From Octopus vulgaris (Eukaryota): DNA of 64,000 nucleotides. Location: assembly GCA_951406725.2 (NCBI GenBank), contig OX597814.1, positions 83,514,001 to 83,578,000 on the forward strand, in the 5' to 3' direction. Below, piece after piece: positions 11,815 through 34,383 of this stretch. Numbering within the stretch: the stretch's first letter is position 1; every line of letters starts with the position of its first letter. The notes under the pieces were generated by a model. That model saw nothing but the letters and a program-made list of their open reading frames with translations, searched no databases and was not told the DNA's origin. The position numbers were made by a program, and so were the translations under genes.

Positions 11815-14502
11815 CATATATTTATATATATACAAATCGAAAATAAAAACAACAAAAGTTGAATGTATTGAATGTATTAATTTAACACTGAGTTTAAGAT
11901 GGAAAAATGTTGGAGTGTGTGACATCTTGAGCATGGCTCTTCATCAGAAAAAGACAAGATGAAAGGTCTGAAGAGAAGGAAAAGAATAGTCCAAGAAAAG
12001 ACCTTGTGTTGCTACATGGCAGAAGTGACCAGAAGTGTTTATATATTCTTTTATTCTTTTACTTGTTTCAGTCATTTGACTACAGCCATGTTGGAGCACC
12101 ACCTTGAAGGATTTTCATTGAGCAATTCAACCCTAGGACTTATTATTCTTAAGCCTAGTACTTATTCTATCACCACTATGTAACAGGATGTAAACACACC
12201 AACACCGGTTGTCAGTTGGTGATGGGGTGACAAACACAAAGACACACACTCACAAATATATACATATGATAGGTTTCTTTCAATTTCTGTCTACCAAATT
12301 CACTCACAAGACTGAACCCAGAACCATGTGGTTGGGAAGCAAGCTTCTAACCACACAGCCACGCCTGCAGCTATATATTTACTTGTAGAAATCAACTGTA
12401 ATATTACATCAAGTTTGATATTTATTGTGCATGAAACTATTGACTCTTGGGTCAGTTGTGTAAGTTTACATCCAATTTAAATATGCATACATAAAATATT
12501 CATTATATGTACATGTGCATACATGTATGTATATATTTATATAGATGAACAGACACAACACACAAAGTACCACTTTCTTTAACTTCCCATCAATAGTAAA
12601 CCTATGGTTGTTTTTGGAACAAAATAACTGTATCAGTATATCTTTCTCAACTTCTTATCATCATCATCATCATCACCACCACCTTACCATCACCATCATT
12701 GTTTTCATCTGCAATTCATTATCTCTCTCATGAGTATTGAACCCATATCACATCATGAGAAAAACTTGACTTACAAAAGCGGTTAGACACTAGAGGTATT
12801 AATGTATATTTGTATGTATATGCATGCAGGCCTATCTGTGCTAGAGAGTAGACACTATTTGTAGAAACCTGGAATACAAACTAGTGTCACATGGCTGCAA
12901 TCCAATGATTGAAACTAGTAAAAGTATAAACATCAAAAGTTTTCAAAAAGCATCCCACCCATGTTAACATAAAAATATCGATAATTTCCAGACTTTTTAC
13001 TTGTGACATAATCGATTATATGAGATGTTAGTGTGGCAGTCATGGAATGTTGTATACAATTTACTGTCAAGTTTGTTTTTCTTATCCTTATCTATGCTAT
13101 TCAGTGTGTGAGGAAAAAAAAGTGTTAAAGACATTATAGAGAAAAAAAATTGTTGATAAACTTTTTTTTTTCTGTTAAATATAAAGAAAACTGTTTTCAA
13201 TTTTCTATTTTCAGAATTATCAAAACGATGACTTACATGTTATTCCTTATTCACATTGAAACATGTGGTTACTATGCAGTGTCTGATTATGAAGGAATTG
13301 GTAGCAACCGATGGGTTTACAATGGCACTGGAAATGCGTGAGTTGATAAAACCTTTTTCTTCTTTCTCAGATATATCTACTATTATTTTGTTATACTTTT
13401 ATTATCTATTATTGAAGCTTGTGAAATGGTGGTAGAGTAGATTAGAAAAATACCCTTGCTTATTTAGTAGTTATCTTCTCTATTTTATGAATCCAGACTG
13501 TACCAACTGCTGGCATATTTAATTTTAGTTTCCTTTATATTGAGAGTTCAAATCTTACTGACTGCTGGCTTGCTTTTCACCTTTTTTGGTGAGCAAAATA
13601 CACACCTATCATATCCAGGAGATTATGTCAATTAAATATTTTCTTCTCCTACAAACGTGTGGCTCTGTATTACCATAAGAAAACATTATTAATATTACCT
13701 GGCTCTTTGGATTTATTTCTGCTGTGTTCCTTGCAATAATATACAGTAATCCTCTCTAGGCCTTTTTTTTTTTGCTTGGTAGTTCATTAGAGCCTTTCTT
13801 GCCTGTGGTTAGGTTCCATAAGTCATATAACAAATTGAAAATGCAAGTTTGTTCTGATAGAAAATCTCTATCATCACTGGGGTGTCTCTAGAATGGACTT
13901 GGTTCATGATAGTGTTTGAAGCAATGATCTGTTGATAATATTTTTATTACACAACTTTATACAAGAGTCATTTTTTTACTTCCAGTAATGTATATGTTTA
14001 TGTGTGTGTTTGTATACACACATATAGAAATAGATATTTATATGTATGTGTGTTGGTATGTATTCCATTAAATTATTACTACTTTACTGAATTCCATTTT
14101 ATCTTTTCCAGCTACATTAGGTGTTTCTATTTGGCTACCAAAACAGCAACTTCTATTGGTAATAACCCCAAACCCACCAATGAGCTAGAATTTGTATTTA
14201 TGACATTCTATTGGCTATCGGGGGTTTTTGTTTTTGCTCTTCTTGTTGGTCAGGTAAATGTTTTTCTTGTTTCTCTTTTCCCCTCTTCAAAGAATTTTAT
14301 ATGTATCTGAACTCTGATATTCTTAACTAGCTAAATATAAACAACTAAAAACTACATCCAAGAAACTTGTTAGTGGTTTGCATTGGTAAAAGTTGCACAG
14401 TGAAGTTTATATGCCTTGGAGAGAAGCAGATTGCAAGTCTGTGTTTTCTCCAAGAAAAAAGAAATGAAGTTTGCTCTCTCTCTTTCTCTCTATCTCTCTA
14501 TC

Positions 14503-14588: not shown

Positions 14589-17500
14589 ACTCTCTCTCTC
14601 TCTCTCTCTCTACTCTCTCCCTCTCATTTCCTGCAGAGACAGAGGTTCAACTATGTTTATTTTGACCCTCTGTCTCTGCAGGAAATGAACCATGTCTCAG
14701 AAAAAGGTGGTAATCTGATGGTGCAAAGTCTGAAGTGTAGGCAAGGGTGAGGCAGTACTTCCAGCCCCTCACGTTTGCATTTGATCACATTGGCAGTGCA
14801 TGCTGGGACATTGGCATGCTGTAGGAGTGCACATCTTACATTGACCAATGCCCAGAAGAGGGCTTTTAAAGCATCAATATTGACTGCAGTTGTTGAGCGT
14901 AAAGGTTAGCATTCATAGTATTACCATCTTGGACAAACTCAAAGTGCAACATCACCTTGAAATTCCACCAAACACCCAACATGATCTTCTGTTCAAATTG
15001 CCCTTGTTTGACAACAGGTTCTGAAGCCTGACCAGAACAAGGCCACTGATTTCTTTCATTAGGAAAAAAAATAGATCCGTTTTTCATCCCCAGTTGAGCC
15101 TAGTCATTCATCAGTTCCTGAGGAGCTTCTTGACTGCATCTGTTGACAAGATTGAGCTTATGGAGGAGTCAATTGATAGTCCTTTGTGAATGACCAAGTT
15201 CTGCCAACAATGTACAAGCGCTTGTGCTTAGTTGTTGTTGAACCATTTCAAGTAAGGTCTCATCTTCCACAACTGAAGATTTCTCTGACCTTGGTTTGTC
15301 TTCGAAGCTGGTATCACCTTCTTTGAAAGATCTAAAACAGTTTTGTACCACATGTACATTGACAGTTTCTAGGCCTTCCACATCATTAATTTCTTTTGCT
15401 GCTGCCCTTGCACTCACTCCTTTTTTCCACAGATAGTGTAAAATGGCTCTAATTGCAATTTTTTCACCACTCATTATCAAAGTTGTAAAATAAAGAATAA
15501 GCAATTAATGTTTATCTGTTATATATGGAAATAAAAAATAAACAGTTCAGCAAAGGTTGGATAAGGTGTGTCAAATTAATGATATAACATAGTGATATAA
15601 GTTGCCAAAAATCATTAGTGAAATCAAAAATAACTTTTGACTTAATGTGATAAAAGAACAATCAAATTAATCATTTTGTTGGCTTTTCTGAATATTACCA
15701 TTCTGTCTTAGTTGTAAACATGCTTCCCCATGATTTATGTCATAAAATTCACTATCCTTATTACAAATGTTATGTCAGTTTATTGAGAAACATTTGGCTG
15801 CTACTATGCACTGGTTATTGCTGTAAAACCTTATTCAATAGTTGCATACAATCACTATTAACAGTATAAGCACTGTAAGATCAGGAAGTATATTGTTTAT
15901 TTAACATACTAAATTCCCTCCTGTAGGCCTCAAGAAGATAACAGAAACCCACTCCAGTATTTCTTTCCCAAAAAGTGCTTGTTATAGAGTCACCAAAAAC
16001 TATCTGCAACTCAATTTTGAAATCAAAAACTAATAAGGTATTTTTCAGAGCAACTAATGCCAGCTATTACAAAGATAGATTTCTACTCTTCCAAATTCCT
16101 TCCTCTTCTTTTCCTCATCACCCCCATATCAGAAATTATTTAAATTTAACATCAACCTCATTTCTAGTTTGAATTAAGGTGGGCCTAAAAACCTCATAAA
16201 TGCCACTTGAATCTTCCTTATAGTTTATTGATCTGTTTAATCTCCTTGCTGTCTATATTGACTGGTATCAGTCACATTTTATGACTTAACTCTTAAGATA
16301 GTGTGTCCCATAATAAATATTTAAAGACCACAATTAGAATATCAATCATGCAATGGAATTCAACTTAAATCAGTCACGTTTTATGTATCTCTAATCTGTA
16401 ATAAGCTTACCAGATATCTTTGTCTATTTGCACTCAGTTCACTGTGCATCATACATACATATATATGTATGTATGTGCACACACACATACATATATATAC
16501 CCAGTAAAAACATTAATTAATTTGAGAATGTTAACAAATAATGAATTGCTTTAAAAATTACAGAAATTATAGCTTATATGATTTATTCTTTTTTTAGTTT
16601 GTTTCAGGTTTTAATGTTTTTCTTCTGAAAAAATCTGATATTTGAGTTATTTTTCCACCATCAGTTTCCAATTTCTTCATCAACAGATCCGTGATATTGT
16701 ACATGCTGCAGGACAAGTAGAGGCAAGTTACAGAAAACAGATGGACATTACATCGTGGTACATGCAGTCTATAAATTTACCAAAAGAAGTGCAGGGAAGA
16801 GTCCGGCATTGGTTTAACTACAATTGGGAACAACAAAAAACTTTAGGTATATTCTTCACAGTTCACTATTTTACAGTTTTCCAGGATAGTTTGCCTTGTA
16901 TGATCATGCGATGTGTTGTGCATTAGAAGACATGTCATGTTAAGTAAAATTTTGGTTGTGGCCAGTCCCGGTGACACATAAAAAAGGCACTCATGCTGGT
17001 GACATATAAAAGACACCCACTCTGTAAAGTGGTAGTCATTAGGAAGGACATTCAGCAATTGAAACCAAGCTAAAATGGACTGGAGTCTGGTGCAACTCTC
17101 TCGATTCCCAGCTCTAACCCATGCCAGCATGGAAAATGGACGTTAAATGATGATGATGATGATGATTCAGTATTTATATTTATAGATTTTTGGTGTTAAT
17201 TGGTTTTGTAGTTATATTTAAATTCTTGCAGCTAACCAACCCAACTGTAATAACATGTGGATAGTATGGAACCTGTTTCTCAGCCCATTAGAACTAAAGC
17301 ATTTAGAATTCTGTATGAGTATTAGAAAACAATGTATAATCATTGTACTGGACTTCTATGTAAATAACCAACAATGATAATTTACTGGGGTCAGATAGAA
17401 AATGTGTCTAGTTCTTAGCTAACGACTTATAAATCAATGTTGGGTTGATGCCATTATTCTATATATAATTTTATTAGAACATTTAAATACAAAGAAACAT

Positions 17501-24900: not shown

Positions 24901-27900
24901 GGGTTATTTACCTGGTGGTTAACACAGGGATGAGAAGTAAACGAAGTGAAATAACATGGCTTTACCAGAAACTGAACATGCAAACACAGACTTGGTTTGC
25001 CACTCTACAGCACTGACACCGCTTAACACTATACAATAAGAAAGTCATGAATAGTTTAAATCAGACCTGTTTGTTCCTCCCAAATGTACCTTAATTCTTC
25101 CCTTAACTCTTGCCACCTGTCATCTAATTTTTATACACTTTTGCCAATATCCAAAATTATCCTCTTTTTTATTGCTTGTTCTAGCTTGTTGGCGATATCA
25201 GGCAGTCGCAGAACAGCTGATGTCCGGTGCAAAGGCTATGTTAATCTGTTCATTCTATCAAAAGCTGATTTCAATGAAACAATGAATGATTACCCAGAAG
25301 CACAGAAGCTGTTGAAGAAACGGGCCAAGTAAGAAAACCAGATTCTATTGGAAAATGTAGAGGTAGTGTGAACCCATTGTTGTTAAAGTAATTCACTTTT
25401 AGATATTACAAGCTAGTGTTCAAACAAATATGAGTGAAGTGTTGTCTTCACACAGTGTTTTTCTGGTTTGAACTAATCCAAATAAGACCACCAGGTCTTC
25501 CTGAAAGACATAATGCTAAAAGCAAACTGTTATAATTGAATTTTGGATTATTTTCTAGTCAAGGTACATTTTGCTTCCACAGACTGCCTGTTTTACATCA
25601 TATACTTTTCTTACATCTTTACAGTGATATAGTTACCAGAAAAAGGCTATCCATTTATTGATTTATATGCTCCAAAACTATGTAAATTTGTGATCAGTTT
25701 CTTTCCCATGTTAGCATGGAAAATAAGCATAAAACAACAAGTGTTTGATCAAAATTATATCATTCATAGAAAACAGAAACACACTTTCATTCCAAGAGTG
25801 GAAACCAAAACATTCAGATGGTCCTGAGATTCAAATATACCTACCAGGCTGCGTGTGTTCTTAGCAGAGATACTTAACACTCTGTGGCACAGACCACCTA
25901 GCTATACAAAGTATATTCAATATCATAACTGAAACAGAATTGTGAAGCTCACAAAATTTTTCTTGCATTAAAGTGTTGGAATGAGAGCCCCTCTTAGACT
26001 ACTGGAGAAATGAGAGATGTTACCAGTAATATTATAGGCATGTACCATCAATAGAATTGGATTTCACCAATCCAGATTTACAGTCCAATTACAAGACAGT
26101 TTCATTTGTATTATATTATTATGGTTTCCTGGTGTGTGTCACTTGTCATCCTTACTGTATATAACTCTACTTCAGTTTTCTCATTTACTTTAATCACCCT
26201 TCCCAGACTAGCAGACCACTGAAATTCTCTTCCGTCCACACTATCCTATACATATCAACCTACAGAAGTTAGAACAATCTCACCAGTTCAAGAATTCCTA
26301 CAAAAACCCTGATCTCTGAATCTCTTCTGATTAATTGATACAAACAAAAAGCTCCATATTTTCTTCTCTAGAAACATCAAATTTTGGGGGTTAAATGAAG
26401 AGAGGAAGAAGTTATGCCAGAAGTTGTAAGTTTGGTAACAATACTAATAAGACAGTCAGCATAATGCCATGATGAACATTTAAATCTTCCTTATTGTCAT
26501 AATTTCTAACCTTGTCATTATTTTAGAAATTATTGTCATTATCATCATCATAATCATGCTGTTTTACTTTGCTCTAATCTATTGGACAAGCTTTTTAAAT
26601 ATCATCCCTCAAAATTTCTTGATCTTGTATTATCTTTGAGGCTTAATGTTTTCCAACTCCCTACTCTTTCATATTCAGCTTACTGCTGCTGGCTCAAGGG
26701 TACTGGTTGCATTTATTAATGTTCATTTAAATTATCTGTTGTCAGACAAATTAGCCAATTATTTTACATAGCATGATCAAAAGTATCTATCAATGGAGCA
26801 ATCAAACCTTCACTGGCTTACCTATGATAACCAATGGAATTCTACTTGCACTTATCAGAGGAGTTAAACTCAACATTGCAAGCCAACAGGGTACAGTTTC
26901 TTCTTAAACATGTGAACCATTCACTCAGTGGTACCTATTCAAAGCTGGGTGGACTGAGCTGTTGTGAGTTAAATGGCTAAAGACAACATAATACAGGCTA
27001 CACCACTAGTCATCTAATATCACTGGTATAATGCTAGTAATATTAGATGAGTAGGTTTCTCATGTAGATTTATGTCTAAAACAGATTCACTTAAACTTCT
27101 TCATTGTTATTTTCTGGATTTTGTTTTTGTTGTTTCCTTTTGTTTTGTTTTTGTAGGAAGCTTCTTAAAGAAAATGCCCGTTTAGCCAGACAAGAGGCTA
27201 AACAGGAATGTGAAGCTATCATCAAAAGTCCGAAAGAAACACCAAAATTTTTAAAAACTGTAATGAAGGTAACTATTTACATACCTGCCTTTTATAGTTT
27301 TATAAATTTTAATTTTTATTTCATTTTTCAGATTTAACCTTTTTCATACCAACCCAACTCTGATCACCTCAGATTCTATAATACAAAACTTCTCATTTTT
27401 AAAGCAGTCATATTTAAATTTAAAATTTCCACCATAACTTCATATAGGTATCTTTTAAATCATGTTCCATATACCAGCTCAATAACAATGAAAATATTCA
27501 CTAAATCACTCAAAATTCTTAATTATTTTCAAAGTTGATAGGCAGAAATACAATAACAAAAGAATTAAACTTTCTAAATTTTCATTGAAGACTGATTTTA
27601 CACACTAGCTATTTCTTACTTTCTTTGTATAAATGTGTGTAGATTTAAATGTATATTCATATTCATGATCTTTTACATTTCCACATATATTCACTAAGAG
27701 GGATATAAACATATATGTGCATGTGTGTAGCTAATTATTTATTATGCTTTTTGTATAGTAATAGTTTATATCAGACAGTTTATAGTATTGTTCATACAAA
27801 AGTTAGAATACTACAAAATATTTTAGAGTTTTTATTATCAATTTGCAATTTGGAAATTAAAATTTTACCACATTATTACAATTTTTTCAGTGAGCAGTCA

Positions 27901-30900
27901 TCAGATAACTGGACATTAAGAAATCTTCCAAAACTTTAATACTAGTTGGATATTATCACAGCTCTATAGAGACTTCTGTGATAAATTTCTTTATGACTTT
28001 ACCTGCAATAGTTTCATGTTTGCTCTGCCTGCACTTAAACAACAGTTATTTGAATTTTGTTAAGGATTTTGTAAATCTGAATGGCCAAGAACATTGTATA
28101 TTTTTCAGGTTATGAATCCTGAATCTGAACTGATGCAAAAAATTGAGTCTAACCAGGTTAATCTTCCAAGATTATCCAATAGCAACAACAGTTTACAACG
28201 AGACCCTCATATTGATCTCTCTTCATCAACAGACCGGACATTAAGTGATAATCAAGTCAACTCTTTGTCATCAGGAAGTGTGAGTGAAATATAATTACCA
28301 ATATTTCATACAAGTTGTTGATGCTGATTCATTAATATATGTCTGCTTGCAAGATTATTTTTCTTGAGAACCTTTTAATGTATCTAAATAAATTACCAGA
28401 ATTATACAGTTTGGTTGAATAGCATTTGCTCCGACTCAATAACTCTGAACATTCTTAGTTTGCTATCTATGGATGATATTCTGATTTTATTGAATCTTTC
28501 TTTCCTATAACTATATCCTTCTGAAACTTCTCAGCTGTCACATTTTCCCTCCAGCCATTGGCTTCCAAATGTTGAATCTGAACATCACCTACAATACTCT
28601 GACCAAATTATCCCTCTCACCCACCTTACTCTAAACAAACTTAAAAAGGTTTTACTTGCAACCCTTTTTGTCAGACTAAAACATAAAAAAAGAATATCTA
28701 CTGTATTCAAGACATACAGGTCCAGTTTGAAGGAGTCAAAAAGATCTGGTCTAAAGAGATTAAAAAGGTGTGAAGAAACAAACCCCATCAAAATTAATTT
28801 AACTGATCCAGTCAGTCAGATCTTTCAAAATGTATAGACTTTGGGATAATATTTTTATTTTATAATCTTTTCCCATTACAAAATTAAACCCAAGAATTGA
28901 AATTGCTAAATAAGGTATCAGACCAATAACTCCCTAGTCTTTAGTTTAGTCTGTAATTACTGTATCATGTCCCTCTGTAAGAGACATTATTCTATCTTTT
29001 TTTTTATTCCATATTGTTACCATATTTAAGAAATTGTTAATTCAAACAGAAGTTACATGAAAATTTGCTGTTGCCACTGCTGCTATCGGCAGAGGCAGTG
29101 TTGATGATTATTTATCTTCCATTCTCTAATTTGTTTTATTCTTTCTCTTCTCCATAGCTGTCTCTTTCAGATATTGCTGATGATTATTGTGTTGAAGACA
29201 GTTTGTTTGGTGATGATGATGTTTTTGAAGAAGATCTTCTAGATTTGGCAGATGATGTTTCCAGTCCCTCGTCTGACAACAACTCTAATGTATTTCTGGT
29301 TAATGTTGAAACCAGCCAAAGTACTAGTAAGTATTCAGTCTGGAAGTATATGAAAGTGTATTTTGTTGGTGTGAAGAGAGTGAAAGTGTATACTTCAAGC
29401 AGTGCTTTTCACTAAATAAAGAATATTCCTCAGATATACTTTGCCATTATAAGGTCACTTTGTTATAGCATCAGAGATGATTTTCATCTTCATATAGAGT
29501 TTTAATGAATAAATTAGCTGAATGAGAGCCAAATCTTGACCACAATCAAATACATGTGCAAAAACATCATTGAGTTTCAGGAAAGGAAAATGTGAAGTTT
29601 TGACATTTAATCTTTATTTCAAGATTTTGGAATCTCGAAAGTAATGGTTTGACTATGGATCAAAACTGATTCATGAACTCAACTTGCTGGGAACTTCCTG
29701 TTGTGGCTGAGTGGACAGGGTATTGAACTGTCTGTTCATACTTCTTGAGTTTATGTCTACTGCAGGCATTGTAATGTGATTTTGGAAATTATATTTAATT
29801 TTAAAAACCCTAATTCACCTAGCCATTGAGAATAAGGACCAGGTGATGTGTAATATAACATCATTCTAACCAGAAGGCAATTTCTCTTGTCACTTTACCT
29901 GCATGAAGCCAGAACCAAACCTTTCAGTATTATGAGCAGCATTCTTTTTTACTAAACAGTTCAATGTGATATTCTACAACTAACAGAAATAACAACTAAA
30001 TCTCCTTCATGTCACATCCTACTGTCTTTATAAACATTAAATAATATAGTCCAACATATACTTAAAAAAACCAAGTTGATCATAGCTAGAATGCTTTAGA
30101 TCATATATTTGCTCAGTCAGATCAGACCTGGGGTTGAACAGCAACAACATTATATTGGTCTTGAAGTACTGTCAAAGGTCGTCAAGCATGTTCTGTTTAA
30201 ATTTCTGAGATTGAGGACAGTACAAAAATTACTAGTAGTGAAAGAAAAGGATTGCAGCTCTGGGAAGGTATGATTAGGTAAAATGTCCAGATTAGTATCT
30301 GGTTTGGTGAAACAAAGTTGGAATGACAAGAGGACAATTGAAGAATGAATCAGGAAACTGACAGTGGAGGTGGTATGTATGTTTGCTTCTACAAAGAAAC
30401 AGAAACAGTAGTAATGGTTTTGCAAAAAGAGGGAAGGAAGAGACATCACATATGTGGATGTGTAACTAGAGCATGTTGATGTGTAAGTATTTGCCAATGA
30501 TTAAAATGAGTTTCTTTCAGGTGTCAGCTAGAATGTTTGTGTGTGTAGGAATAGCGCTGAGCCAGATATCTGAATAATATTTCAATGTTGCTTACACTTT
30601 ATTGTTAATTGAGTGTTAGTAACTATTCAGAGCTGGATAGTTTTTCTACATCAAGAGGAAGTCTTATCTTTGAGACACAAGCTTGGCAGTGTGATATGAG
30701 ACCATGGCAAATTGTCAAAGATTGTGAGGCCTAACCTTCGTATTGACTTCATAGGATTTAGTTGCATGCTGGTTTTATTGTACTCCCAACATATCTTGAT
30801 TTTATTTTTGTATATTTATTTCTCTTTCTTTTCTCGCAGACCAGTCAACAAGCAATCTGTGTTCTCATGTGAGTTCCCAGGGACTTGGTTCTACATCTAA

Positions 30901-31411
30901 CAACAACAACTTGCCTGAAGTTGAAATTCAAGCTGTTCCAGATAATCTGCACGATTTCTGGCCTGCACCGAACTTAGTAAAATCTTGGTCACACAATTCC
31001 ATCAATGTAATGAGTCATTTATTGAATACAGAACCAAGGAAACGGAAAATTTCTATACATTCAATGAGTAATGATAGTATCCCTAATGCTTTGAAAACAT
31101 GTTCAAAAATATCTAATATTGTCCCAGTGAAAGACATAAGCATTCCAGTTGAAAACCGAGTAACATGTGCAGTTGAAGTTCACCAGCAGGAATGTATAAG
31201 TAGCCCTGTACAAAAAAGCATCAGCTGTAACCAGCTTTACAAAGATGAAGAATTGTCCACAAAACTACATTTAGTTAATCCATCTAGTCAGGAGACGTTG
31301 ATTTATGAGAATAACAATCAAACACCAGATCTCCTTACACAAATTTATCGCAACAAAGACTCAACGCCTTCACCGAAACAGTCAGAAAGTAGTCAAGAAA
31401 CAACTTGTTGA
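9864..31411 (+). CDS. CNGB: Cyclic nucleotide-gated channel beta subunit (CNGB/TAX-2-like), 5'-partial; join(9864-9928,13215-13337,14112-14253,16687-16846,19497-19594,21741-21824,24291-24409,25185-25328,27157-27268,28109-28279,29158-29326,30840-31411)
   Basis: All exons are AG/GT-bounded with compatible phases; 1959 nt = 652 aa + TGA. Translation follows CNGB landmarks: [25 protein letters not shown], pore [11 protein letters not shown] (no Glu), [15 protein letters not shown]-linker, [14 protein letters not shown]...FGEISLL...RRTADV, and no recognisable CLZ. Confidence 0.95.
11830..11990 (-). mobile_element. Degenerate Penelope-like pLTR with a decayed minimal hammerhead (11921-11947)
   Basis: Reverse complement CTGATGA-A-GAGC-CAT-GCTC-AAGAT-GTC, versus the minimal HHR pattern CTGATGAA-stem-GAAAC-GTC; abuts (TA)n. 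Confidence 0.45.
13215..13337 (+). CDS. CNGB: CNGB exon (S5: [41 protein letters not shown])
   Basis: tttcag acceptor, gtgagt donor; S5 and the WVY.G.GN motif. Confidence 0.95.
14112..14253 (+). CDS. CNGB: CNGB exon (pore helix, filter, S6)
   Basis: [47 protein letters not shown]; ttccag acceptor, CAG|gtaaat donor. Confidence 0.97.
14866..15645 (-). mobile_element. Truncated mariner transposase pseudogene
   Basis: ORFs 15169-15504 ([30 protein letters not shown]) and 14866-15087 ([17 protein letters not shown]...NANLYAQQL). Confidence 0.85.
16687..16846 (+). CDS. CNGB: CNGB exon (C-linker)
   Basis: [20 protein letters not shown]...[23 protein letters not shown]; caacag acceptor, gtatat donor. 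Confidence 0.95.
19497..19594 (+). CDS. CNGB: CNGB exon (C-linker)
   Basis: [33 protein letters not shown]; tttcag acceptor, gtctgt donor. Confidence 0.95.
19950..20300 (+). mobile_element. LINE 3'-end fragment
   Basis: [30 protein letters not shown] resembles the post-RT R..RL..AGHC motif; (TAA)n tail. Confidence 0.55.
21741..21824 (+). CDS. CNGB: CNGB exon (CNBD start)
   Basis: [28 protein letters not shown]; taatag acceptor, gttagt donor. Confidence 0.95.
22630..23340 (-). mobile_element. Internally deleted Tc1/mariner-superfamily element
   Basis: TIRs cagggtggtc..tcttgttacctcctac / gtagggggtaacaagacttggaccaccctg, TA TSD; catalytic fragment IWAAIS...IGPYFF...WFQQDGA...WLPRSPDL. Confidence 0.88.
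23755..24130. mobile_element. Foldback/MITE with long imperfect TIRs in a CNGB intron
   Basis: ttgtatctcaggagggtcattctatcaataat...ttcacttctttat pairs with ataaagaagtgaa...attattggtataatgagcctcgtaaaatacag. Confidence 0.7.
24291..24409 (+). CDS. CNGB: CNGB exon (CNBD beta-roll)
   Basis: [40 protein letters not shown]; cctag acceptor, gtaaaa donor. Confidence 0.97.
25185..25328 (+). CDS. CNGB: CNGB exon (phosphate-binding cassette, B/C helices)
   Basis: [48 protein letters not shown]; ttctag acceptor, gtaaga donor. Confidence 0.97.
27157..27268 (+). CDS. CNGB: CNGB exon (end of C-helix, post-CNBD)
   Basis: [37 protein letters not shown]; long pyrimidine tract + tgtag acceptor, gtaact donor. 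Confidence 0.92.
28109..28279 (+). CDS. CNGB: CNGB exon (C-tail, Ser/Asn-rich)
   Basis: tttcag acceptor, gtgagt donor, open in phase 0; no homology support recognised. Confidence 0.8.
29158..29326 (+). CDS. CNGB: CNGB exon (C-tail, acidic)
   Basis: Pyrimidine tract + catag acceptor, gtaagt donor; phases 0/1 link the flanking exons; [33 protein letters not shown]... Confidence 0.78.
30840..31411 (+). CDS. CNGB: CNGB terminal coding exon
   Basis: Strong acceptor (tttcttttctcgcag); phase 1 joins into the 180-aa ORF 30869-31411, which ends QETTC*. Confidence 0.82.
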
Positions 31412-33102
31412 ATTTTTTTTATTAACTTTTTTGAGGCAAATACTAAATCGCTTGTAAGATTCTCAGTCTGCATTCTGCACTGGTCATCCCTAGTCACCAC
31501 AAGGTTTTTTTTTTAATTCTCAGCCTAAATCATTTGGTAATCTTTAATATTCAGTACTTAATAATCTTTTTTTTAATTATCCCTAATAACAGAAAACTCA
31601 TAACAACTGTTATTATCCATTATCATAAAATATAATTTAGTATTAAATAGTAGCAAGCAAGAAGTAAGCTTCGTGAAGGCTACATATCTTTGATAGCCAG
31701 TTGAAGATAATTCATTTTCATTGATTATACCTCTGGCTATATCACAAAAGGCCAGTTTGCCGTTACAGTAAATCTGAGGCTTGTACCTAATCACAAGGAA
31801 TTCAGAATTATATAATATTTTAAACGTGGCAAGTTGTAGGACATGAAAAATGTCAGATTAGATGACTTTTGTCTTGCTATATAAACTATGATTGGTGAAA
31901 TATCAATGTTATGCCTTGATCAACTCAAATTTCCCCTTATGCTTAATCAGAAGAAATTTATGTTATTCAGTATCTCATCTAGGTATTAATATCTATATTA
32001 GAGATATAAGATAAAATTCCACCATGTTTGTTGTTATATTTCACTGATATTATAGCTAGAATTATTAAGTATTATGTCTATATAATTACATGTATAAAAT
32101 TCTATATTCATTTGGTTATTATACATATATTTAGATGTTTTACTTTGATGATACTTCTTTAAGACAACCATGTCATTTCATATTGAGTATAAAATGTAAA
32201 ACAAAATTTGAATACATATTATATTAGTAGAATTATAAGATTTTCTTAAGAAAATGTTCTAATATTGATTAAAAGAGTGAGAAAAATATTTAAGATATAA
32301 GTATTGTATGAAATGTATGAGAACAAAAGAGATTCACTGCAATTGTACATACACTCACACACACATATATGGTGGCCTCAATAATGTTGGTGCCACAAAA
32401 AAATGCACCTGTCAGGAAGGGTATGCATGACATAGCCCTATCAAATCATTCAACACATGCTGGCATGGAAGGCAGACATAAAATACTGATGTCAATTATA
32501 TAAATATCATCATTGCTTTAACATCCACTTTTCTGCGCTTGTATGGGTAGAATAGAGTTTATTGAGACAGATTTTCTATGGCTAAATGCCCTTCCTGTTA
32601 TCATCTCTCACCTGTTTTCAAGCAAGGTGATATTTCCCCCATAGTCAGACATGGTTCCACAGAATGTTCGGAATGAATGACACTGCTTGTATGACAGTGT
32701 CACTCATTTACAACTATCATTCAGTGTCAAGACAATGGTGTATCTAGATTTGGATTCGGCTATGAATATAAGCCTGTAATATATTGGGTTACAAAACCCT
32801 TAAGTGGAAAAAAATAAACCAAAGACTGGGTTCATGTCCTACATGTAACCCTCAGTCTTTTCTCCATCCATGAGGATAACCCAGTACATTACAAAGTATT
32901 ATTTATAGATGTGTCAGCATCAAGATTCACCATTAAAATGATTATTTACATAGTTTCTTGAAGTTTCCATATTCTCATAATACAAACACACTGACATATA
33001 TATTAGTTGTATATATATTTTCATTATTTATGTGTGTGTGTGTGTGTGTGTGTCTCTCTCTCTCTCTCTCTCAATATATATATACACACACACAAACTGG
33101 CT

Positions 33103-33605
33103 CTAAAAGTGACTAAGGGTGCAAGTCAGCATCAGCATTGCTAGAAATAAAGTCAAGACAACTCTTAGTCATGAACAGAGCATTTTCTGTTCAAAGAGCA
33201 CTATCCATTGGCTGACAAGGGAGACAGCCTCCCTACTGCAAGTGACGACACCAGATCACCAGTGATTTCAGATCAAATTAATCCTCATCAGTGACTAAAA
33301 TGGTAAAGTGATAATTATCATTTTACCATTTTACTGAATCAGCCACTGATTTGTATGGTATTTTTTATAAACTGACAAGTCAAGTTAGCTTAACCATAGG
33401 CAATGGAGTAGCATCACCAATGAGGATTAATTTGATCCAACATCACCGATGATCTGGTGCCCTCGCTTACTGTAGGGAGGTTATCTCCTTTGTCAGTCAA
33501 TAGATAGTGTGTTTTGAACAGAAAATACTCAGCTCATAGCTAAGAGTTGTCTTGACTCTTATTTCTAGCATTGCTGTGCTGATTTGCACCTTTAGTCACT
33601 TTTAG
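33103..33605. repeat. Long inverted repeat (192-bp arms 33103-33294 / 33414-33605), each arm with a hammerhead motif; putative inverted Penelope-like pLTR pair
   Basis: Arms align end-to-end as reverse complements (~85% by eye); a 38-bp near-perfect hairpin at 33296-33333 lies in the spacer. Confidence 0.9.
33248..33295 (-). ncRNA. Hammerhead motif in the left arm of the foldback
   Basis: Reverse complement: GTCA-CTGATGA-GGATTAA-T-TTGATCT-GAAA-TCACTGGTG-ATC-TGGT; AUC triplet. Confidence 0.65.
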
Positions 33606-33670
33606 TGATGATTTGTACTTGTGCCTTTTGGTTTTAAATTGTGACTAGCCACATTGATAATTTATATAGA

Positions 33671-33736
<66 letters not shown>

Positions 33737-34112
33737 TATATATGTCATCATAATCATTTAATATCCATGTTCCATGCTGTTGTGTGTTTGATGGTTTTAC
33801 AGGATCTGAAGGAGTGTGGTCGTTGCCAGACTGGCCCTCATGCTGGTGGCACATAAAAGCACCCACTACACTCTCGGAGTGGTTGGTATTAGGAAGGGCA
33901 TCCAGCAGTAGAAACTTTAGCAGATCAGATTGGAGCCTGGTGCAGCCTTCTGGCTCGCCAGTCCTCAGTCAAACCGTCCAACCTATGCCAGCATGGAAAG
34001 CAGACATTAAACAACGATGATGATGATGATGCATATATGTATACATAAGCATATATATGTGTGTGTGTGGGTATGTATATATATATATGTGTATGTGTAT
34101 ATACACTATCTA

Positions 34113-34150
<38 letters not shown>

Positions 34151-34153
<3 letters not shown>

Positions 34154-34383
34154 GGTTGGCCAAAAGTCATCTGACAGTAAATCAAAACCATTTAATTCCA
34201 AGATTTATTTGTTTAGCTACTGAATGAGACTTCACTAACAAATACACAAATGTTGAAAAAATGGTGATTTTACCTCACAACATTCAATTATAAAACATTC
34301 ATAACTAGAATGAATAAATATAATTGAATATTAAGTATTTATGGAATTTTGATTTACTGTTGGGTGACTTTTGGCCAACCCTC
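34151..34383. mobile_element. Tc1/mariner-type MITE
   Basis: ~40-bp TIRs cagggttggccaaaagtca... / ...tgacttttggccaaccctc, flanked by TA, inside (TA)n; non-coding. Confidence 0.85.

Follow-up and report, generated by a model that had tools for sequence, protein, structure and literature searches.

A likely ADAR-edited foldback of head-to-head, hammerhead-bearing repeat copies in the probable 3'UTR of an octopus CNG channel beta-type gene

We identified a foldback of two hammerhead-bearing repeat copies downstream of the stop codon of a CNG channel beta-type gene in a window of 64,000 nucleotides from Octopus vulgaris (contig OX597814.1). The locus is likely the product of an old, single Penelope-type retrotransposition into a microsatellite of the probable 3'UTR, which left a monomer together with an inverted copy of it, and the duplex that the two are predicted to form in RNA is likely edited by ADAR. 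It adds to two known kinds of system, the retrozyme-like non-autonomous Penelope repeat and the repeat-borne 3'UTR editing substrate, and is no new class of system. The features discussed below are the following (window coordinates).

30840..31411, plus strand: final coding exon of the CNG channel beta-type gene (GT..AG joint 29326>30840 in runs X1, X3 and X4; ORF 30800-31411)
31412..33573, plus strand: putative long 3'UTR, through the right arm at least (tiling RNA contigs; X5 contig 33326-33573)
33030..33097, unstranded: left flanking microsatellite (TG/TC/TA/CA)
33092..33310, minus strand: inverted 5'-truncated monomer copy (model positions ~103-310) plus ~15 nt of inverted monomer head (nhmmer, family profile)
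33156..33543, plus strand: 35 clustered A>G sites, likely due to A-to-I editing, in the RNA-type contigs
33248..33297, minus strand: left-arm remnant of a type I hammerhead, on the strand opposite to the CNGB transcript
33296..33333, unstranded: hairpin of two monomer heads (monomer positions 1-23) back to back, with the self-complementary centre ATAATTAT
33311..33666, plus strand: single complete monomer of ~345 nt with an AT-rich head/tail junction at its end (profile match 33312-33654, model 2-345)
33411..33460, plus strand: right-arm remnant of a type I hammerhead, on the CNGB sense strand
33670..33742, unstranded: right flanking microsatellite (TG/TA/CA)

CNGB1 and CNGB3 were the top PDB matches for the exons at 14116-14256, 16684-16848 and 25180-25329, which identifies the gene as CNG beta-type. 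Its stop codon lies at 31409-31411 and the foldback starts at 33103, 1.69 kb further 3', in agreement with the 1.7 kb given in an earlier reading of the letters alone (hereafter the sequence-only reading). RNA contigs of runs X1, X3 and X4 tile from 30840 to 33419-33482 with small gaps, a continuity made up of overlapping or adjacent contigs, no one of which covers the whole of 30840-33573. In X1 and X4 the introns are covered sparsely or not at all, unlike the last exon and the stretch 3' of it. The foldback is therefore likely located in the 3'UTR of the gene, a placement that had been considered, since it is present in RNA contiguous with the last exon. Two very high-copy repeats (32560-32740 and 33745-34030) also lie in the UTR or just beyond it, the first of which causes large depth spikes in all runs.

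The two arms (33103-33294 and 33414-33605) are inverted 192-bp repeats, as originally described, with 84.5% identity over 193 columns. A 38-nt hairpin (33296-33333, self-complementary at 36 of 38 positions) is indeed present between them; they had been placed around it, but it lies off-centre, because the 119-nt spacer that separates the arms contains, besides the hairpin, ~80 nt that belong to the right monomer. By alignment to the family profile described below, the window holds one full plus-strand monomer and one truncated, inverted minus-strand copy, head to head; this anatomy follows from the recurrence of the monomer 3' end upstream of the monomer start. The left copy lacks monomer positions ~24-102, and no target-site duplication could be discerned at the left flank (33030-33097). 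In another family locus (L118:1971-2239) almost the identical segment of ~65-80 nt, from between the head and the ribozyme, is missing, with a different junction, beside a short repeated motif. The minimum free energy of 33103-33605 was -289.8 kcal/mol compared to -117.5 ± 6.6 kcal/mol for 30 dinucleotide shuffles, and the two arms are predicted to pair as a duplex of ~190 bp in CNGB RNA, the length of dsRNA proposed earlier.

The foldback was used as a query in its own genome (2.8 Gb in about 30 large contigs, microsatellite-rich). The search gave 727 first-look candidates; the best matches among the 40 that were scored start at query position ~209, in the middle of the hairpin, and extend to the right end of the foldback. 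The mobile unit is a dispersed, non-coding and non-palindromic monomer of ~345 nt (347-position profile) and not a palindromic element, as the sequence-only reading had it. No ORF of the element was found in the family loci. The monomer 3' end is found again directly upstream of the monomer start, forming a head-to-tail junction. After removal of re-fetches and of one copy of a segmental duplicate, 70 distinct loci remained: 26 solo, 21 with a partial tandem, 14 with an inverted piece and 9 with both. Same-strand pieces, mostly partial, thus occur at 30 of the 70 loci and inverted pieces at 23. The inverted pieces are on the 5' side of the main copy in 26 of 26 cases and the same-strand pieces in 30 of 32, the anatomy of a non-autonomous, ribozyme-bearing Penelope-type insertion that had been foreseen. 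Three loci (L036, L055 and L059) have two hammerhead-bearing units each, and no long tandem arrays were seen across the 70 loci. Neither the window nor any locus of the 15 copies with an intact core holds two or more consecutive units with a complete hammerhead. A microsatellite was present at the end of 48 of 60 strong pieces, compared to 434 of 1750 distal-flank control windows. Self-pairing of the decayed window monomer is weak (z -1.73) and structure in the family consensus is almost nil. A 20-letter fixed pattern had 17 matches genome-wide and its reversed control none. Since 9 of the 17 were already among the ~60 loci from the DNA search, the genome is suggested to hold ~100-200 hammerhead-bearing copies, an estimate that is biased low.

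A FastTree tree of the copies was star-like and poorly resolved, and subfamilies were therefore defined by stem III of the ribozyme, an assignment that is ambiguous for 17 of 72 pieces, the right window copy included. In overall identity the window arms resemble each other no more than they resemble further family copies, so that they could also stem from one subfamily by two separate insertions. The two window copies have 10 of 10 minority states in common, compared to at most 7 for any other copy, and this sharing fits one insertion event. Two inverted matches 9 kb apart on C2 (L079 and L080, G000:C2 ~183.0 Mb), considered as a Penelope-like element (PLE), are rather a 3.3-kb inverted duplication with 99.5% identity.

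Partial tandems at the 5' end and inverted 5'-truncated copies are the anatomy of EN+ Penelope-like elements in the available part of one report (PMC8557442). As far as the accessible portions of the papers go, the octopus family shares with these elements its 5' partial tandems, the 5' position of the inverted 5'-truncated copy, microsatellite or AT-rich targets and the lack of a clear target-site duplication (PMC8557442; PMC4209133; PMC11167929), and differs from them in having no RT/GIY-YIG ORF, a hammerhead of canonical rather than minimal size and no PLE found that shares its sequence. Pairs of hammerheads on opposite strands, 100-700 bp apart, are already on record for Schistosoma in the part of PMC4209133 that we could use. 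The repeat is likely a Penelope-mobilised non-autonomous retroelement, judged by this anatomy. Attachment to PLE ORFs, which had been raised next to occurrence as inverted pairs, yielded no partner in the two PLE families sampled; the inverted pairs were found at the 23 loci mentioned. No PLE protein match (ORF with RT plus GIY-YIG) was present in the window, and the monomer was absent as a pLTR from 30 GIY-YIG loci (30 of 6136 candidates), from 30 loci of a second PLE family and from 16 extended 3' flanks, one of which, in the second family, contains a small monomer fragment. Monomer fragments adjoin PLE sequence at three loci (L131, L113 and L169), and shared microsatellite targeting can explain these. 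The L038/L131 PLE was rejected as a partner, as the monomer piece is in none of the fetched flanks of the other 29 copies and the 3' ends are unrelated. At L131:7578-7884, head-to-head monomer pieces run into a 5'-truncated PLE ORF with no microsatellite between, possibly a template-switch chimera. A young, apparently intact Penelope-like family with many copies and a 781-aa RT+GIY-YIG ORF was found at L114 and L115 (G000:C16); its 456-bp pLTRs are 99.3% alike, its 3'UTR has internal tandem repeats and inspection of its pLTR by eye showed a hammerhead-like motif of the minimal type, with U3-A8. It too was rejected as a partner, its pLTR being unrelated to the monomer. Right behind this PLE, at L114:6531-6953, is a separate foldback of ~420 bp with CTGAAGA..GAAA, possibly another hammerhead-like palindromic repeat.

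The insertion could have arisen as follows. A Penelope-like RT/GIY-YIG protein would act in trans on repeat RNA of more than unit length, and both target strands would prime its reverse transcription, for which priming of cDNA from both target strands in L1 twin priming is the analogy. Joining of the two cDNA ends would place an inverted, truncated copy at the 5' end in head-to-head orientation, and a short snap-back at the palindromic monomer head would give the 38-nt hairpin. In the available part of a study of a purified PLE protein, both strands were cut and extended at AT-rich DNA and ribozyme cleavage was not needed (PMC11167929).

Compared to the metazoan non-LTR retrozymes, as described in the accessible parts of two sources (PMC7229834; bioRxiv 10.64898/2026.07.22.740005), the octopus family is alike in having a GC-poor, non-coding monomer of a length within 150-450 nt (the mussel repeats measure 350-390 bp), a type I hammerhead of canonical size whose helix III is palindromic, head-to-tail junctions, monomers that are dispersed and now and then located in a 3'UTR, and a proposed PLE origin. 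It differs from the retrozymes of those accounts by the lack of long tandem arrays (70 loci), by 5' inverted copies in about a third of the loci, by being old and decayed, by a U4C core in one branch and by a monomer that is only weakly self-paired. A PLE-mobilised, "retrozyme-like" family would be the safe label on these sequence features. Our literature searches found no description of a cephalopod retrozyme; supplements and TE libraries may list the family.

Each arm carries a type I hammerhead remnant at its inner end, where it had been recognized, with the AUC triplet in both window copies. The family fold has a helix I of 6 bp, a helix II of 4 bp and a palindromic helix III, in agreement with the canonical metazoan type I hammerheads in the part of PMC4209133 at hand. 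The stems hold across copies: helix cells were paired in 87% of 379 cases compared to 14-37% in slid controls. Covariation was modest, as 5-31 of 500 shuffles reached three of five measures and 171 and 302 reached the other two, and in stem I the apparent compensation can be mimicked by CpG decay. No Rfam hammerhead match was obtained for the window or for L026, L014, L072, L120, L128 and L129; Rfam e-value matches in the window and the loci were microsatellite/miRNA noise. Among the subfamilies stem III takes the form of three different perfect palindromes, with the loops TCGA, CCGG and GGCCGGCC, which suggests, at the level of sequence, selection on the masters for dimeric cleavage. Position 4 of the core varies with these classes: copies with the TCGA loop have C in 4 and T in 23 cases, and those with either of the other loops have C in 13 and T in 5 (P=1.5e-4, for copies that are not independent and with 17 of 72 pieces ambiguous in stem III class). 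Among the 17 fixed-pattern matches it is C in 9, T in 6 and another letter in 2. A natural U4C core, CCGA for CUGA, is described for a viroid in the available part of PMC3088659, weaker in vitro and sufficient in vivo. In that text the viroid case concerns a single isolate, whereas in octopus U4C would be the master state of two retroelement subfamilies. The G8A change occurs in 5 of 26 C4 copies (L013, L020, L021, L022 and L123) and in none of 35 T4 copies (P=0.011 in a post hoc test; P=0.046 when compared to the background); it might be a sign of masters whose core was weakened once more. The subfamilies offer a ready test of whether dimeric cleavage is supported by U4C cores and by a palindromic stem III, a matter of relevance to whether Penelope-associated hammerheads are required for spread.

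In the RNA contigs of the five RNA-type runs (four studies), the element contained A>G changes at 16 (X1), 9 (X2), 3 (X3), 13 (X4) and 21 (X5) sites, all on the plus strand, and no other change type was listed. These counts come from assembled contigs, several at depth <5, of 5 of 14 RNA-type runs with two organism labels, and 3 of 6 untyped runs were also covered; no run is recorded as RNA, and the RNA type is presumed, backed in X1, X3 and X4 by splice joints. Together they amount to 35 distinct sites, 13 of them in at least two studies and 7 in three, the right-arm sites being mostly from one contig (X5). All are located in the duplex (35 of 114 adenosines, compared to 0 of 26 in the spacer; P=3e-4). 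ADAR avoids a 5' G neighbour and favours a 3' G and A:C mismatches. Here, a 5' G was avoided (2 of 35 sites compared to 28 of 105; P=0.008), a 3' G was favoured (15 of 35 compared to 23 of 105) and 10 of the 13 adenosines in A:C mismatches showed A>G. In octopus the 3' G preference of editing is weaker, according to the accessible part of PMC5625713. The changes were absent from DNA contigs of other individuals than the RNA: X16 (33121-33573) and X17 (33373-33568) had 0 differences from the window. The foldback is thus likely an ADAR-edited 3'UTR hairpin, given A>G changes that are clustered in RNA and absent from DNA, and both the ADAR substrate and the A-to-G clusters in RNA had been anticipated. 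Outside the foldback, A>G changes were seen upstream at 32771, 32894 and 32907 in X1 RNA contigs (32907 also in X4), and in the coding exon at 29292, in X1 only, at the synonymous third position of a Val codon.

In its long, imperfect 3'UTR duplex and its clustered sense-strand A>G changes, the locus resembles repeat-borne A-to-I hyper-editing of the inverted Alu type. Hyper-edited repeats are known from Penelope in lizard and X. tropicalis and from a palindromic Harbinger (PMC5625713, PMC10636886, in the parts available). Unlike in the cases covered there, the octopus duplex likely stems from one head-to-head insertion and not from chance neighbours or a palindromic consensus. It is compact, locus-specific and heavily edited, resides in an ion-channel mRNA and could serve as a natural reporter of ADAR. 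The simplest account of the editing is that ADAR acts on dsRNA supplied by the repeat. The foldback could in addition have been retained as a regulator, its editing or dsRNA binding tuning CNGB mRNA through nuclear retention, stability or poly(A) choice. Strong editing that recurs in four studies and under two organism labels would suit such a role, as would the poly(A)-like hexamers at 31642, 32268, 32813, 32932 and 33146, which could yield isoforms with and without the duplex. We nevertheless regard exaptation as unlikely, because the arms have diverged by 15.5%, with transitions at 25 of 33 mismatches, as in unconstrained copies, and because editing of repeats is widespread in cephalopod 3'UTRs, to judge from the accessible text of PMC9068888. 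An equally doubtful, wider speculation is that Penelope-type head-to-head insertion provides ready-made ADAR substrates in one step, at a third of the family loci, that the window copy was co-opted for control of CNGB mRNA via an edited long-UTR isoform, and that the family is a retrozyme lineage which spread after a U4C switch of its master while the dimer-forming stem III palindrome was remodelled.

The sense-strand ribozyme may also have been inactivated by selection that spared the CNGB mRNA, as the sequence-only reading proposed. In its favour, the letters of the two cores are as reported: the left (minus-strand) copy keeps CTGATGA (33291-33285) followed by GAAA, with C17 at 33254 and stem III ATCA-CTGG-TGAT, and the right (plus-strand) copy, with stems I-III still pairable, has CCAATGA..AACA, altered at G5, G12 and A14. 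Thus there are three core changes in the sense copy and none in the antisense core letters. The left copy is not intact otherwise. The 6-bp stem I that was obtained by combining the two arms applies to the family fold; in the left copy the outer two pairs are gone and two of the four that are left are G-U, with a further G-U pair at 10.1-11.1. Two of the three sense-strand changes, at G5 and G12, are CpG transitions, and at both core CpG sites the right copy reads CA and the left copy TG, so that an ancestor with CCGA..CGAAA explains both copies by one transition each. The seemingly intact CUGA of the left copy is, most parsimoniously, itself probably a CpG decay product of the subfamily-typical CCGA (U4C) core, and the contrast drawn between a kept and a lost core is not supported. 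Moreover, the core is lost in 47 of 62 scored copies and kept in 15 (canonical in 13), or kept in 11 of 51 once pattern-picked loci are set aside, and core letters mismatch in 8-14% compared to 11-13% in the background, a decay at about background rate. Finally, forming the right hammerhead costs 2.3 kcal/mol alone and 30.5 kcal/mol with the left arm upstream; the duplex would block it, and selection is not needed for its loss. Selection on the sense ribozyme is, accordingly, more improbable still than exaptation. Under a single old insertion followed by neutral decay, both window ribozymes would have decayed largely by CpG deamination of the CCGAUGA (U4C) core and are probably non-functional. 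In the CNGB mRNA the left arm would be transcribed first and the right hammerhead sequestered in the duplex. With the left ribozyme antisense and the right one mutated and sequestered, the channel mRNA is not expected to cleave itself.

A reading of the A>G changes as allelic differences, as contigs of paralogues or as chimeras of the two arms made in assembly is very improbable. In its favour, the data are contigs, the DNA is from other individuals, and 10 of the 35 sites face a C, so that the other arm would supply a G there. A further 24 sites, opposite T, cannot be explained by a mix-up of the arms; only a single change type is found and no other arm difference appears. The changes are carried by locus-specific junction contigs, contigs from two DNA runs are exact, and the neighbour bias and the restriction to the duplex also speak against this reading. 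Each DNA run did show A>G at 2-5 places within the element, at a distance of 5-21 letters from the ends of other contigs, and these are read as paralogues.

Least probable is a DNA transposon of the foldback type, or a MITE, that has long inverted repeats at its termini and a coincidental resemblance to a hammerhead, for which the long inverted arms of the window would speak; it was rejected since 47 of the 70 loci have no inverted piece and hence not every copy has terminal inverted repeats, since the piece, where present, is of variable length and always 5', and since head-to-tail junctions are common and the ribozyme stems hold across copies. An element of ~224 bp with terminal inverted repeats, MITE/Tc1-mariner-like and within a TA run, is located separately at 34152-34375.
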